Positions 24,427 to 56,864 of a stretch of DNA of 64,000 nucleotides are shown here, piece by piece. The notes below the pieces were generated by a model. The model saw only the letters and a list, made by a program, of their open reading frames with translations, did not search any database and was not told the DNA's origin. Numbering within the stretch: position 1 is the stretch's first letter; every line of letters begins with the position of its first letter. Source of the DNA: a virus; IMG/VR virus record IMGVR_UViG_3300050011_000164, positions 20,730 through 84,729 of that record; one strand, given 5' to 3'. The position numbers and the translations under genes are program-made.

Positions 24427-24501
24427 TGGAACCCGCGACGGGACTCACACCCGCAACTCCTTCGTTTAGAATGAAGTGCTCTGCAATTGAGCTACGCAGG
24501 T
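24427..24501 (-). tRNA. tRNA with CUA anticodon (amber suppressor-type), atypical D and T loops
   Basis: ACCTGCG TA GCTC-AATTGCA-GAGC A CTTCA-TTCTAAA-CGAAG GAGTT GCGGG-TGTGAGT-CCCGT CGCGGGT T CCA; 75-nt cloverleaf with encoded CCA. Confidence 0.8.
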
Positions 24502-50646: not shown

Positions 50647-51277
50647 GCAAGTCCTCCGAAATGTTCCCCACACAGGACACACACGTGGGATCAACTTTAC
50701 CCCGTGCAACATGCCATCGAGTGTGCCGCCCTTTGTCCCCCACCAGACGTAGGTGCCCGTTCTCGGCATTTATTAAGCCTTGTCTGTGGCCATTTTCCTC
50801 AGCCATGTTCGGGTACAACTCACGGACACGCTTCCCACCTAACCTCCCGCCTTTTGGTCCACCTAGCTTCCCAGCTTTGCTGGAATTTAAGAAAGCTTGT
50901 TCGGGGTTTGCTTTTCTCCATCGAGCACGTCCGGCCCTCGAAGCCACCCTAGTAGCTGCGGCACGGTCTTCGTAAGCATACGGTCCTCCCATCACTTGCT
51001 TCAGGGGGCTGGCTTGATTTTTGCCGTTAGACCACCAAGTGTCCATTCTCGCAATCCACATGGTTTCTTTGGCGGCTCTAATATAGTGGGCTTGCTCCTT
51101 GTCATGAAATTGCATCGTCCCTTCCCACAAGATGCGATGCTCATGCTTTGCGGGGTCAAACCATTTGTACGCACGATATCCGTAGCGCCGTACCTTCAGG
51201 GATTGATTGGTGCTACCCACCATGAGGCATTTTTCACCCTCGAAAACCCCGTAAATGATGAAGTGGTAATCTATCAC
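50639..51277 (-). CDS. GIY-YIG-like homing endonuclease
   Basis: IIYG...MVGST...R, ETMWI, N; GG-rich basic tail ending HTRWH...CVSC. Confidence 0.6.
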   Translation of the reverse strand: MIDYHFIIYGVFEGEKCLMVGSTNQSLKVRRYGYRAYKWFDPAKHEHRILWEGTMQFHDKEQAHYIRAAKETMWIARMDTWWSNGKNQASPLKQVMGGPYAYEDRAAATRVASRAGRARWRKANPEQAFLNSSKAGKLGGPKGGRLGGKRVRELYPNMAEENGHRQGLINAENGHLRLVGDKGRHTRWHVARGKVDPTCVSCVGNISEDLHV

Positions 51278-51705
51278 AGTCCCTCACTAATCGGTTTGAG
51301 ATACTGAATGGCTTTTGCGAGCAACTCGGGGGAGATTTTTAGTCTCTTCAAACCCTCCATGCAGTCGGCACAGAGTAATCCCCACACCCGCCCATCGCGG
51401 AAATCCACTAAAGTCTTCCTGTTATACAATACCAACGCCGAGTCGCAGATGCGGCACTTTTTATCCTGATGCCGCCAAAGTTCGAGGTACTGTCCGGGTT
51501 TCATCAGGTATTCGCGTTCGAGGAAGGCATCGTAGGTGTGGACCTTCGCCCAGAAAGTACCACAATAAGTGTTGTGACAGGTGCGGCAATAGTAGGAGCG
51601 ACCGCTGGCGGTGCGTTTGTTAAAGCCAAAAGCATCCAGTATGAGCCATTTTTCGCACTTTTTACACCATTTCTCCTTGTCGTTGAATAGCCGCTTGCGC
51701 CCCAC
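51274..51705 (-). CDS. Endonuclease VII-like Zn-finger protein (catalytic residues appear degenerate)
   Basis: CKKC...CRTC; Q..KCRIC...VD...VWGLLCADC...L.KAIQYL. Confidence 0.7.
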   Translation of the reverse strand: MGRKRLFNDKEKWCKKCEKWLILDAFGFNKRTASGRSYYCRTCHNTYCGTFWAKVHTYDAFLEREYLMKPGQYLELWRHQDKKCRICDSALVLYNRKTLVDFRDGRVWGLLCADCMEGLKRLKISPELLAKAIQYLKPISEGL

Positions 51706-51726: not shown

Positions 51727-51785
51727 CTAAATAGAGAGTTCGCTAGTTAACAGATTTTATTCGCTACCAAACCCATCTTATGTAG
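51727..51785. promoter_or_regulatory. Divergent pair of putative late promoters
   Basis: ACTAGCGAACTCTCTATTTAG (-) and GCTACCAAACCCATCTTATGTAG (+). Confidence 0.45.
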
Positions 51786-51811
51786 AGGATACTTTCCTCC
51801 GAGGAATCACC

Positions 51812-54334
51812 ATGGGCGTACCAACAATCGGTCCTGTTTTCGTGTTGACTCAGGTTTCCAACGCAGTTTTCCCATATCTGGGGTCACCAACTGGCAGCAC
51901 AACCTACACGGGAACCGTCACTGGCGGGGCAGCATCGGCAACGCAGCCGAACGGAGCCTACGCTGGTCAGGCTTTCATCATCACTGGCTTTACCAGTCCC
52001 AGCAACAACGGCACATTCAGATGCGTGTTCTCCTCCGCGACAACCCTCGTCCTCAGCAATCGTAATGGCACGGCTGTAGTTGCCGCTGGACAAGCCCAAT
52101 TGGTTATAGGGCACGGCACTCCTTTGCAGTATGCTTCAAAAATTTCAAACCTCGCGTCAAATGACCAAGGCGATAACGTCTATGTGAGCCCCTTGGCTGG
52201 TGACACGCTTGTTGCCATCGCATTCGGCCTCAAGAGCCTCGATCCATTCGATCAGCTTCACGGCGCATCCACCCATTTCGGCTACCTACAAGGCTTGAAC
52301 GACTTCATGCCCAATGCTCCGACAATCTCGGACAACTCGACATTTACTCCCGAGTCCCCACTTGCTGTGAGACTTGGCACGGCTGCTAACTATGCCCTGC
52401 TCGCCTACAGCGGCATTACGAACACGGGCGCATCGGTCATCAGTGGTGGAAACATCGGTTCAGCACCGACAACTGGAACGGAAAGCGGATTTACCTTCGT
52501 TTCTCCAGCCGCGATTGACAACGCCAACGCAGCGGCGGCTCGCACCGCAGGCAACACTGCCTTTACGTACTACTCAGGGCTGGCTCAGACGATGGCACTC
52601 ACGACCGCCGACATTGGTTCATCGGGCACTCAGCACAGTCCCGGTGCTCCAAACGGCACTTACTATGCTGGCGTGTACGTCAGCGGAAGCTCTATTGCGA
52701 TCACCACAGCGGTCACTCTTGACGCCCAAAACAACCCGAACGCGCTTTTCGTGTTCTACGCCACAGCCAGCACCATCACACAGGCTATTGCTGGAACGAT
52801 CACTCTAATCAACGGCGCGACCCCCGATATGGTCGTCTGGGTTGTCGGAAGCTCTTGGACTACCACTGGTCCGGGCGCTGTTACGGTCGGTAACATTCTG
52901 GCTTACACGAGCATCACGCTCGGTGGTGGCTCCCTCAACGGTCGCGCTCTGGCGGTTGGCGGCGGCAATGGCGCTGTAACTATCGCGGCGGCTACGGCGG
53001 TCACAGTGCCTTCCCTTGGCGGTAGCGCCAACAACTGGGTTCTCGTGGCGAACATCAACCTCGCAGACGCGGATTACAGCGGATACTCCATTCCGCCACT
53101 TGCTAACACTTCGTGGCCCGCAGCGGATTGGAGCATTGACGGTTACTACCCAAGTCTATACATTTGGGTTTGCGCTTCTGCAAATGCAGGAAGCTACAAT
53201 GTCAACCTCAACTCCGTTTACCAGAACGGCATCTCAGCCCCACTTGATCTGGCGGCTGGCAAGCCGATCTTCGACGGCGGCATCAACTTCCAAGTCATTG
53301 ACTGGACGGGCATGACGGGTGCAACAATAGAAATCGGCGGCTCCCCAGCTTCGGATTCGCAGGTGGCGATCACGGCTGCTAACCCCGCTGTCACCGCTCC
53401 AATCGTTACATCTGGCGGCGGCAGCCCGCCTGTGGGTGATCTTGTCATCGTAGTAGGTCTCCAGAAGAACGCCAACGGTCTCGGCCTTGGTACGGATTCC
53501 ACGATGTCAACCTACAGTTCATCTGTCAATGCTGAATTGGGCACGGCAGCTAACTATGCTTTGCTGGCCTACAGCGGAATCACAAACGCCTCGGCCTCGA
53601 CCTCGGTAACGGGCGGCGTCATTGGCTCGGCTCCGACGATGACTGAGACAGGCTTCAACCCCCCAGTGGTAACAATCGACAACGCCGATGCAGCAGCGGC
53701 TCGTCTTGCAGGTAACGCAGCGTTCGGCTATTACAGCGGATTGACCGCTACGCAGTCGGGTCTCGCAGACCTCAGCGCCAACGACGGTGGCGGGGGAGCG
53801 GGTGTCTACTACGCTGGCGTATTCAAGGGCGGTGCATTCCTAATGCCGACTGGCATTACGCTCGATGCTCAGGGCAACTCGAATGCGGTCTTCGTGTTCG
53901 TCGCATCTTCAACCGTCAACCTTGCAAGCGGTCAGTCCGTGACCTTGGTCAACGGTGCTCAGGCATCAAACGTGATCTGGGTGGTCGGAAGCTCCTTCAC
54001 GTCGGTTGCCAACAGCAACATGGTTGGCGACATCTTGGCCTACACCTCGATCACTCTTGGTGGCGGCACCCTCGTTGGGCGTGCACTCGCCGTAGGTGGG
54101 GGCAACGGTGCTGTCAGCATCAGTGCTACGACCGTCATCACGGTTCCTAGTGGAAGTAGCGTCGTGACCAACGGCGGCTACAACATGGTCAGCAGCGGGA
54201 AACTGGTTGGCTCTGAAGCTCACTACCTTGTGGAGTGGGGCGTTCAGGGTGCACCGGGTTCTTGGACACCGCAATTCGCGAATCCACTCGGCTATGAGAC
54301 TCTCATCGCTGCGGTTGCGATTAGCCATAGCTAA
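51812..54334 (+). CDS. Probable virion protein with two DUF3494 ice-binding-like domains
   Basis: Twice LGTAANYALLAYSGITN...AGV...LDAQ.N.NA.FVF...L.NGA....V.WVVGSS...G.ILAYTSITLGGG.L.GRALA....GAV; no signal peptide; GAGGA RBS. Confidence 0.88.
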   Translation: MGVPTIGPVFVLTQVSNAVFPYLGSPTGSTTYTGTVTGGAASATQPNGAYAGQAFIITGFTSPSNNGTFRCVFSSATTLVLSNRNGTAVVAAGQAQLVIGHGTPLQYASKISNLASNDQGDNVYVSPLAGDTLVAIAFGLKSLDPFDQLHGASTHFGYLQGLNDFMPNAPTISDNSTFTPESPLAVRLGTAANYALLAYSGITNTGASVISGGNIGSAPTTGTESGFTFVSPAAIDNANAAAARTAGNTAFTYYSGLAQTMALTTADIGSSGTQHSPGAPNGTYYAGVYVSGSSIAITTAVTLDAQNNPNALFVFYATASTITQAIAGTITLINGATPDMVVWVVGSSWTTTGPGAVTVGNILAYTSITLGGGSLNGRALAVGGGNGAVTIAAATAVTVPSLGGSANNWVLVANINLADADYSGYSIPPLANTSWPAADWSIDGYYPSLYIWVCASANAGSYNVNLNSVYQNGISAPLDLAAGKPIFDGGINFQVIDWTGMTGATIEIGGSPASDSQVAITAANPAVTAPIVTSGGGSPPVGDLVIVVGLQKNANGLGLGTDSTMSTYSSSVNAELGTAANYALLAYSGITNASASTSVTGGVIGSAPTMTETGFNPPVVTIDNADAAAARLAGNAAFGYYSGLTATQSGLADLSANDGGGGAGVYYAGVFKGGAFLMPTGITLDAQGNSNAVFVFVASSTVNLASGQSVTLVNGAQASNVIWVVGSSFTSVANSNMVGDILAYTSITLGGGTLVGRALAVGGGNGAVSISATTVITVPSGSSVVTNGGYNMVSSGKLVGSEAHYLVEWGVQGAPGSWTPQFANPLGYETLIAAVAISHS

Positions 54335-55470: not shown

Positions 55471-55512
55471 GAAAAACCCCTAAAAATGGGTTAAAGTTTA
55501 GTATTATGCATC

Positions 55513-56121
55513 ATGGTTGGGATTTATTGCTGGGTAAATGTTGAAAACGGGAAGATTTATGTTGGCTCGGCAACCGATGTAGCTCGCCGAAAATATCACC
55601 ACACCAGTCTTTTGAAAATCCAAAAACACCCCAATACGCACCTTCAAGCTGCTTGGCTCATGTACGGTGCCCACGCTTTTGAGTTTGAACTTCTGGAACA
55701 GGTGGACGACTTGCTTTGGCTCCGTGCCCGAGAACAAGCTTGGATTGCTCGACTTCAAGCGTGCAATCGTGAGTTCGGCTACAACGTCACCAGCGATGCA
55801 TGGGCACCCGTAACCTCGCCTGAGACCATTGCCAAGCTGAAGAAGGCTTGGGTAGCACGGAAGGCACGAGGGGACTATTACAAATTCACAACTGCGGACA
55901 CCGTGAAGGGTGTGACGGCTGCTGGCAAGAAGAACAAGGCTCGTTGGGAAGACCCTAAAATCCGAACTGAGATGCAAGAAGCACAGAAGGCGGGTTGGAC
56001 ACCTGAAGTTCGAGCAGGTCAAGCCAAGAGATTAGAACAGCAAAAGTTAAAGGACCCTACAATGTTCAGCCGTGGTGGTAGGAAAGGCTCGGCTGTTCGC
56101 TGGGCAAAGGAGTTACAATGA
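55513..56121 (+). CDS. GIY-YIG homing endonuclease
   Basis: GIYCW.N..NGKIYVGSA...R..H...L...H.N.HLQ.AW..YG...FEF..LE...REQ.WI...GYN. Confidence 0.9.
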   Translation: MVGIYCWVNVENGKIYVGSATDVARRKYHHTSLLKIQKHPNTHLQAAWLMYGAHAFEFELLEQVDDLLWLRAREQAWIARLQACNREFGYNVTSDAWAPVTSPETIAKLKKAWVARKARGDYYKFTTADTVKGVTAAGKKNKARWEDPKIRTEMQEAQKAGWTPEVRAGQAKRLEQQKLKDPTMFSRGGRKGSAVRWAKELQ

Positions 56122-56864
56122 GCGCAGAGTGTACTCCATATTTTGATTCCATTACCGCTGCCCGTGCAATGCTCCTAACCGAAGAAGAGGCCCTCGAAGG
56201 GCAAACACTCCTCAGCGCAGAGTCCGACCCAAAGAAGAAAGAGGATCAAAAAATCCTCACTTACATTCAGGAGAATTTCCCAATGTTCCTGAAAATTTTG
56301 CGTCTCCTGAAGAAGGAGGATCAGGAACTTTTGCTGAGCTACTACCTGTTGAGTAAGACCCAGAACACGCTGGCGATCATACACCGCAGCACGCAGACAG
56401 TGTGCTCCTTCCGCATCCGCATGGCGGTCAAAGTGTTGTGCGCTTTCATCCTGTATGGAAAAGAGTTCACCGAAGAGAAGATGCGGGCCGTGTTAGTTCA
56501 GGCAAAGCTTGAGAACAGTATCAAGAGCGTGCCCCTTAGCACGATCATCGACCTGTACATCAAAACTCGGAGCTTTCAGCGGGTCGCCGAGATTCACAAG
56601 CTCCACCGCCCCGACATCCGCCGTGCGATGAGTCGGTCGAGCAAGCAACTACTGGAATCCAAGGACCCTGAAGAGAAAGCATTGGGGGCGTTCATCCACA
56701 GTCTGATCGACAAGGCTAACCCTAGCGGTACGGGGTTTTCGAAGCGGAAGGTTCAGAAGTTGGGGAATATTTACAGAACCGATCCCGCGATACTAGGCAA
56801 CTTTCGAGTCAAGATCACTGACCCCGACTTCGATCACATGTTTGTCAGTCGAGCGAATCGGTAG
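56118..56864 (+). CDS. Sigma-70 region 4-like double HTH protein (candidate phage sigma or late regulator)
   Basis: LKKEDQELLLSYY...KTQNTLA.....TQ..CSFRI; second HTH SFQRVAEIHKLHRPDIRR. Confidence 0.5.
   Translation: MSAECTPYFDSITAARAMLLTEEEALEGQTLLSAESDPKKKEDQKILTYIQENFPMFLKILRLLKKEDQELLLSYYLLSKTQNTLAIIHRSTQTVCSFRIRMAVKVLCAFILYGKEFTEEKMRAVLVQAKLENSIKSVPLSTIIDLYIKTRSFQRVAEIHKLHRPDIRRAMSRSSKQLLESKDPEEKALGAFIHSLIDKANPSGTGFSKRKVQKLGNIYRTDPAILGNFRVKITDPDFDHMFVSRANR

Follow-up and report, generated by a model that had tools for sequence, protein, structure and literature searches.

The phage protein P0001, 840 aa long, consists of a phage-specific scaffold into which two complete domains of the ice-binding family DUF3494 (Pfam PF11999) have been inserted. 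Its gene lies on a 64,000-nucleotide stretch of DNA, hereafter the window, which comprises bases 20730-84729 of the 84,729-base IMG/VR virus record IMGVR_UViG_3300050011_000164. We propose that P0001 is a surface-exposed modular accessory adhesin of a jumbo phage, and give this reading a probability of about 0.6. An all-beta scaffold of approximately 290 residues, conserved across the phage clade, would offer an N-terminal and two loop positions to swappable cassettes. Both loop positions would be filled in the present phage by complete DUF3494 beta-solenoids, whose first and last coils lie side by side, so that the fold plugs easily into a loop. The flat, Thr/Ser-lined B face of each copy would be shown on the outside and would stick the particle to an extended, repetitive surface. 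As ligand of this face, a polysaccharide (host capsule or slime, or the peat matrix) is our leading candidate, short of even odds; ice is a less probable one, on a par with the B face having no external ligand or some other one.

Two DUF3494 domains in one phage protein

P0001 matched the PF11999 profile (Ice_binding) in two stretches at E 6.4e-51 and 173.4 bits (cut-off 28.7), the better of which spans profile positions 2-207 of 208. When the phage record was searched in six frames with this profile, at the same cut-off and with no match in any of 14 control genomes, the first ice-binding-fold domain (IBD; IBD1) was placed at 52400-52996 with 98.1 bits and the second (IBD2) at 53564-54136 with 97.6 bits. 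These full-length matches confirm an earlier note on this DNA, which had seen two complete DUF3494-like domains at about 52365-53010 and 53530-54150. The two copies share 54% identity (122/226, E 1e-51), and all 25 PDB sequence matches of P0001 were ice-binding or DUF3494 proteins. In the family-profile searches P0001 had no Pfam match except PF11999 and no PHROG match.

An AlphaFold2 model of P0001, built with 42 homologues, reached a mean predicted local distance difference test score (pLDDT) of 79.6 and a predicted template modelling score (pTM) of 0.48, with block pLDDT values mostly of 84-96 in IBD1 and 76-93 in IBD2. Each IBD is predicted to form a long helix (residues 240-255 and 627-642, respectively) followed by many short strands, and Foldseek related the predicted model to DUF3494 models with a probability of 1.00. 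As modelled, both copies show the helix-braced beta-solenoid fold of DUF3494. The N-terminal module of the ‘NNGTF’ type, which recurs inside other proteins, was modelled with 10-residue-block pLDDT values of 55-93, mostly 78-93; it is optional, as the match of homologues of 516-520 aa starts at P0001 residue 96-101. A signal-peptide-like N-terminus was not seen in P0001 on reading the sequence by eye, no predictor having been run; for a protein of the virion, such a peptide would be unnecessary.

Insertion of the domains into a phage-specific scaffold

A homologue search of 5.8 billion proteins scored 8000 candidates, 155 of which were relatives at E ≤ 0.001. For the mapping of architectures, which covered the first 66 hits, P0001 was cut into an N-terminal part (N, residues 1-183), IBD1 (184-402), a middle part (M, 403-584), IBD2 (585-780) and a C-terminal part (C, 781-840). 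The N-IBD-M-IBD-C layout was found in three of the 66, namely P0001 itself, P0002 (837 aa, 74% identity) and P0003 (824 aa, 61%), both identities being over the full length. Twenty-seven homologues have one IBD in the scaffold, at site 1, twelve have the scaffold with small beta modules or beta-barrel cassettes instead of an IBD, and 24 carry an IBD within other architectures of 470-1421 aa. Scaffold part A (Table 1) was present in every scaffold-bearing homologue mapped, and scaffold part B is 86% identical between P0001 and P0002. In a complete relative of 463 kb the corresponding protein has 375 aa, a single small barrel and no IBD.

When a profile was searched against 1.84 billion representatives, 858 proteins matched at E ≤ 0.001, 69 of them at E ≤ 1e-30. 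Its matches include insert-free scaffolds of 269-312 aa, in which parts A, B and C follow one another without a break and a plain short loop stands at each insertion point. Since such scaffolds exist, the DUF3494 domains are true insertions into a phage-specific scaffold, as the earlier note had described them. A catalytic scaffold was considered and rejected, the PFDxLHG motif being invariant in close relatives and gone in distant family members.

Two kinds of small beta cassette, of the ‘NNGTF’ and the ‘LNGQ’ type, recur often, within the scaffold family as well as in hundreds of large proteins (1000-2100 aa); examples are P0123 (L015:10417-12831), L086:4074-10370 and L090:4143-10355. They look like a cassette system wider than the DUF3494 one.

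Exchange and origin of the cassettes

The comparison between P0001 and P0002 differs by region: identity is 81-87% in the scaffold and 85% in IBD2, and falls to 51-56% at site 1. IBD2 is 75% and 72% identical to domains in a 1066-aa and a 2070-aa protein of a sister phage (G001), compared with 54-55% to IBD1 in the same chain. As IBD2 is closer to the domains of other proteins than to IBD1, the two did not arise by recent duplication. By these identities, IBD1 and IBD2 belong to a cassette pool that travels among sites, genes and phages.

Two simpler origins were rejected. A recent tandem duplication of one IBD is at odds with copies that are only 54% identical, each being closer to domains in other proteins. 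A recent capture from the host is disfavoured in two ways: the best cellular copies reach 36-44% identity over the full domain (species-representative genomes), and copies of the host lineage score approximately 175-220 bits against the Pfam model compared with about 98 bits here. Of 151 genomes sampled from the probable host order, 34 contain PF11999.

Contigs from four DNA runs came in pieces of 170-900 bases, none of which spans the gene, and cassette swapping within the population is not readable from them; bins lacking cover carry no evidential weight. In three of the four runs, contigs depart from the window at base 52993, near the end of IBD1, with an identical continuation, and one contig links 54000 back to 52913. 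The departure and the join fit a paralogous or variant IBD in the same communities, and may also be an assembly effect caused by the repeat.

The same domain in fibre-like proteins of sister phages

PF11999 matches are numerous in three sister phages, with six in G001 (223.5 kb), five in G002 (186 kb) and three in G003 (155 kb), while the same search of two complete relatives, G004 (463 kb) and G005 (332 kb), gave none. One of the sister-phage carriers, 614 aa long, has DUF2793 and matches tail-fibre PHROGs, and another is a 536-aa protein with a C-terminal K1-lyase_C tailspike domain (33.5 bits, cut-off 27). A third case concerns the fibre-like gene that neighbours P0001: its G001 ortholog (479 aa) carries PF11999 in the middle of the protein, at residues 88-272, and is otherwise similar to the 321-aa protein of the window, with 76% identity over the first 59 residues and 60% over the last 137.

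Because the cassettes are swappable and the same domain is found in tail-fibre-like and tailspike-like proteins of sister phages, we infer that the phages of this clade would display DUF3494 on the particle and that P0001 would likewise be located on the virion. The argument is indirect, and the fibre-type carriers of the sister phages are its strongest part.

The Thr/Ser-lined face

The rows that make up the ice-binding B face of AnpIBP are listed in PMC7277481, where the B-face mutations S153Y and T156Y are reported to lower activity to 17%. They were transferred to the phage domains by way of a HMMER alignment between IBD2 and 7bwx. In 109 IBDs, Thr and Ser account for 57% of the residues at the 27 outward B-face positions versus 19% elsewhere, and charged residues for 3% versus 5.5%. 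The positions aligned to S153 and T156 hold Ser in 96/109 and Thr in 102/109 IBDs, respectively. For the 69 IBDs of the phage clade, mean entropy was 0.80 bits at 23 face positions versus 1.22 bits in the rest of the domain, and 54 of 10,000 random position sets were as low as the B face. As far as the alignment tells, the phage copies have kept the Thr/Ser-lined face of the family intact.

Ligand and alternative readings

Several results weigh against an adhesin on the particle. Concerning the scaffold, the comparison with tail-fibre family profiles gave nothing, P0001 and the minimal scaffold P0121 both matching 0 PHROGs; a Foldseek search of the scaffold against the PDB returned nothing at E ≤ 0.001; and the scaffold core reached only Z 6.0-6.5 in VIA-align, which is inside the stated noise of the tool. 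Concerning the genomic context, taken from 15 related loci of which several are near-duplicates (about nine distinct layouts), the fibre-like neighbour was found in just one of the 15, and the conserved neighbours of P0001 are an endonuclease and a probable regulator, with no tail genes. Concerning the face, the beta-2 row was left out of the entropy test, its register being doubtful and its positions 676 and 678 hydrophobic. Moreover, 14 bacterial copies, which are those of 37 cellular loci that gave full-length alignments (Acidobacteriota, Rhodococcus, Planctomycetaceae and others), are equally Thr/Ser-rich on the face (55% vs 17%). The conservation of the B face may be a mere property of the fold, and since soil-bacterial copies share the same Thr/Ser bias, a conserved face is no proof of ice binding. 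A face conserved across so many proteins also argues against the binding of a host-specific receptor.

The alternative that survives best is the one suggested in the earlier note, a viral ice adhesin or cryoprotectant, in which the B faces would bind ice, as in EfcIBP, AnpIBP and IBPv, and would anchor virions to the vein walls of frozen peat or slow recrystallisation. Ice binding is the sole function that has been shown experimentally for the DUF3494 fold, and the residues aligned to S153 and T156 are kept in the great majority of the IBDs. The face is under purifying selection, which is expected for an unchanging ligand and fits such a ligand better than a host receptor, and the habitat is peat or permafrost in all 21 runs among the runs listed. 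The cassette is also optional: as the two complete relatives of 463 and 332 kb have no IBD, it would be an ecological add-on that is inessential to infection. On the other hand, the face is identical in its Thr/Ser character in the 14 bacterial copies of diverse soil lineages, PF11999 is common in the probable host order (see above), and a survey of 50,669 metagenomic DUF3494 sequences terms the family ‘ice-binding and substrate-binding’ (PMC12337378). Swaps of whole cassettes between close relatives are, in addition, unexpected if the ligand never changes. An ice-binding P0001 is accordingly no better than a tentative proposal, and equally doubtful is its extension to the clade, according to which phages of seasonally frozen peat and permafrost bear working ice-binding domains on their particles, with cassettes spread among head and tail surface proteins.

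Repurposing of the domain for host or other surfaces, which the earlier note had named as a second option, is at least as likely as ice binding. A polysaccharide ligand of the adhesin is backed by the company that the cassette keeps (fibres, tailspike ends and endosialidase-like barrels), and by its swapping between close relatives.

It is improbable that the solenoids act as structural spacers or oligomerisation modules, with their flat faces packed on each other or on the scaffold and nothing bound outside. Hydrophobic ice-binding faces tend to pack face-to-face in crystals (PMC7277481), a conserved face would suit a fixed protein-protein interface, and the low whole-chain pTM means that domain packing is not fixed by the model. 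However, the solenoids are dispensable to the scaffold, of which conserved forms with one insert or none exist, and the domain occurs in many unrelated architectures.

Slightly more improbable still is a P0001 that works off the particle, as an auxiliary protein in the infected cell or released at lysis, for example protecting the host during freezing: the lack of matches to virion families, the endonuclease and regulator-like gene as conserved neighbours and the DUF3494 proteins that the probable host order has of its own would suit it, whereas the N-terminus reads by eye as having no signal peptide, the phage-only scaffold shares cassettes with fibre-type proteins of 1000-2100 aa, and sister phages carry the domain in proteins with tail-fibre and tailspike signatures.

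Fold of the scaffold and of the alternative cassette

The scaffold itself has no clear relative among solved structures. P0121, P0048 and ten further members of the family had no Pfam or PHROG match, and a scaffold profile searched against PDB sequences found only ice-binding proteins and one match at E 0.33. In VIA-align, the top rows for the 375-aa model were an E1 FCCH domain (Z 9.5), the phi92 endosialidase barrel (Z 8.8) and a phage tail-tube insert (Z 8.7); these rows are mostly filled by the barrel cassette (model residues 85-173), and the scaffold core is barely covered by them. For the scaffold residues of P0121 (268-375), the matches were the receptor-binding protein head of Tuc2009 (Z 6.5, root-mean-square deviation (rmsd) 4.1 over 98 residues), a C1q trimer (Z 6.4, rmsd 8.3) and XepA (Z 6.1), all of which are below the level that the tool treats as clear. 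The alternative cassette is a six-stranded barrel, which matches the insertion barrel of the phi92 endosialidase at rmsd 2.3 over 82 residues.

The scaffold model matched 22 predicted viral structures at E ≤ 0.001. The best look-alikes over the whole chain are uncharacterised phage proteins of 231-253 aa, with template modelling scores by target of 0.54-0.63. The ESM Atlas gave no usable feature match and, by structure, unnamed viral clusters only.

Comparison with known systems

DUF3494 is the most widespread microbial ice-binding fold and moves by horizontal transfer. The best solved sequence relatives of both phage copies are EfcIBP (PDB 6EIO) and AnpIBP (PDB 7BWX/7BWY), which for IBD2 match nearly the whole domain (6eio at E 6.5e-16, 7bwx at E 3.6e-15). 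Like the phage IBDs they are helix-braced beta-solenoids, and the face rows of AnpIBP align to rows of Thr, Ser, Ala and Gly. They differ in being free single-domain proteins with proven ice activity, whereas the phage IBD is an internal cassette known from sequence alone. IBPv of the Flavobacteriaceae isolate 3519-10 (PDB 5UYT) resembles P0001 in having two complete DUF3494 domains per chain, both of which align to IBD2. In IBPv the domains are directly consecutive (chain residues 5-211 and 214-417), while those of P0001 are about 180 residues apart, occupy two scaffold loops and belong to different cassette lineages.

Viral counterparts are few. The only viral matches to the model at E ≤ 0.001 in BFVD (3/3) are DUF3494 proteins of Hyperionvirus (A0A3G5A745 and two others), which is a giant virus of eukaryotes and no phage, with identities of 21-30%. 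The barrel of the phi92 endosialidase (PDB 4HIZ) is likewise an accessory binding domain spliced into a phage structural protein, with a fold different from DUF3494; its residues 254-338 are matched by the barrel cassette found in place of the IBD in relatives (Z 8.8). The endosialidase barrel binds polysialic acid, and Ig-like decorations such as T4 Hoc are a further example of accessory domains on a phage structural protein. MpIBP of Marinomonas primoryensis, like the adhesin proposed here, has an ice-binding module on a long surface adhesin; it differs in its unrelated fold, in being a bacterial cell-surface protein and in that its adhesion to ice is proven. Its ice-binding site is described in PMC7277481, and it is termed a ‘bacterial ice-binding adhesin’ in the title of a cited reference.

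In the literature searched, no published report of DUF3494 in phage proteins was found. The parts of DUF3494 surveys that were available, including PMC12337378 apart from its additional files, make no mention of phage or virus, and DNA and protein searches of 50,697 GenBank phage records found no relative of P0001. The present analysis adds a scaffold with three cassette positions together with its insert-free forms, a fibre ortholog with and without the domain, and a bacterial control for the face.

Whatever the ligand, the three-position scaffold provides a clear case, found in nature, of a phage protein that displays modules. If ice is bound, viruses join the organisms that manipulate ice, which bears on viral persistence and infection in frozen soils that are now thawing; true ice adhesins would be the first viral ones, and would keep virions attached to the walls of those liquid veins in which hosts outlast freezing, or shield them from growing ice crystals. 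If a polysaccharide is bound, this would show the purpose of many DUF3494 proteins in soil bacteria of non-polar regions.

Gene neighbourhood and upstream element

The features of the gene and its surroundings are given in Table 1. The tail-fibre gene that the earlier note had placed downstream of P0001 is indeed there, and its product matches tail-fibre PHROGs. No other gene of the neighbourhood is as conserved as the 248-aa gene, which has a sub-threshold match to Phage_antitermQ (E 0.0012) as its sole match and is possibly a regulator.

Table 1. Positions (window coordinates) of the P0001 gene, its parts and the neighbouring features.
Feature	Position	Strand	Remarks
Upstream element, GCTACCAAACCCATCTT	51763..51808	+	hairpin GAGGA 51785-51789/TCCTC 51795-51799; Shine-Dalgarno GAGGA 51801-51805
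P0001, jumbo-phage scaffold protein with two DUF3494 cassettes	51812..54334	+	840 aa, open under table 11
Optional N-terminal small beta module (‘NNGTF’-type cassette), residues 1-100	51812..52111	+	missing from 516-520-aa homologues
Scaffold part A, residues 101-183	52112..52360	+	invariant columns G130 to D174 in 42 aligned homologues
IBD1 at insertion site 1, residues 184-402	52361..53017	+	PF11999; 81% identity to P0006 site-1 domain
Scaffold part B, residues 403-584	53018..53563	+	invariant N407, W409, D421, W440, D443, G444, P447 and others
IBD2 at insertion site 2, residues 585-780	53564..54151	+	PF11999
Scaffold part C, residues 781-840 (GKLVGSEAHY ... NPLGYE strands)	54152..54331	+	L798 to Y805, N824, P825 and Y828 nearly invariant
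Tail-fibre-like gene, 321 aa	54386..55351	+	4 tail-fibre PHROGs, E 1.2e-9 to 1.9e-7
Conserved gene, 248 aa	56118..56864	+	downstream in 15/15 related loci, 68-97% identity
Endonuclease VII gene, divergent neighbour	51274..51705	-	PF02945, E 1.6e-9; upstream homologue in 13/15 related loci

A GIY-YIG gene is located in the same neighbourhood. Since it is present in only eight of the 15 related loci and is skipped by a contig, it behaves as a mobile homing endonuclease. The contig in question, from a permafrost run, skips 643 bases at 55488-56132, with 32 other letters in between, by which the GIY-YIG gene is removed. A cluster of glycan genes adjoining P0001 (39704-50769) was found only in closer relatives, in a comparison with L010, L012, L013, L015 and L017. 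Distant relatives lack the cluster, and their scaffold gene lies directly against the block of giant-protein genes beside terL.

Approximately 45 bases upstream of P0001 there is a motif with CTACCA, CTACCAAA, at 51764-51771. CTACCA is common to this site and to five ACTWCC-N5-CTT sites (0.69 expected by chance), one of which precedes terL; the sites sharing CTACCA precede terL and the giant-protein block. The late-type motif that the earlier note had seen upstream of the gene is therefore only partly upheld: CTACCA is shared with the site upstream of terL, while in the P0001 site the first A is replaced by G, and the full ACTWCC-N5-CTT is not matched. The upstream element, with its hairpin before the start codon, is kept upstream of homologues in related phages. 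The leader contains GAGGA, TCCTC and GAGGA in this order, the first GAGGA being able to pair with TCCTC and the second being the Shine-Dalgarno sequence, and the hairpin may control translation.

Virus record, probable host and habitat

The virus record is 84.7 kb long at an estimated completeness of 26% (CheckV), which points to an uncultured jumbo phage as its source. The window also holds a large terminase gene and a glycosyltransferase cluster. The phage origin of P0001 assumed in the earlier note is supported by terL and the fibre, endonuclease VII and GIY-YIG genes in the window, besides the nature of the IMG/VR record.

A clue to the host, though no proof, is given by a TonB gene of the phage (19375-20115, minus strand): over its full length, the product shares up to 69% identity with the TonB proteins of Acidobacteriaceae and Candidatus Sulfotelmatobacter. 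The best 80 TonB loci are nearly all from Acidobacteriota, and by this similarity the phage probably infects Acidobacteriota of peat. The 21 listed runs with all or part of the gene come from 18 studies and are without exception metagenomes of peat or permafrost, which agrees with the freeze-thaw soils or peat guessed in the earlier note. Near-identical copies of the gene occur in metagenomes of these habitats only. At least half of the sampled words of the gene were found in five runs, the possible source run not being counted. No RNA run is among the listed runs holding the gene, which says nothing either way about its expression.

Finally, a tRNA with the anticodon CUA (an amber suppressor, called tRNA-Pyl by ARAGORN) is located at 24427-24501 on the minus strand, just upstream of terL. 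Despite this tRNA, the long open reading frames of the window are open under the standard code.

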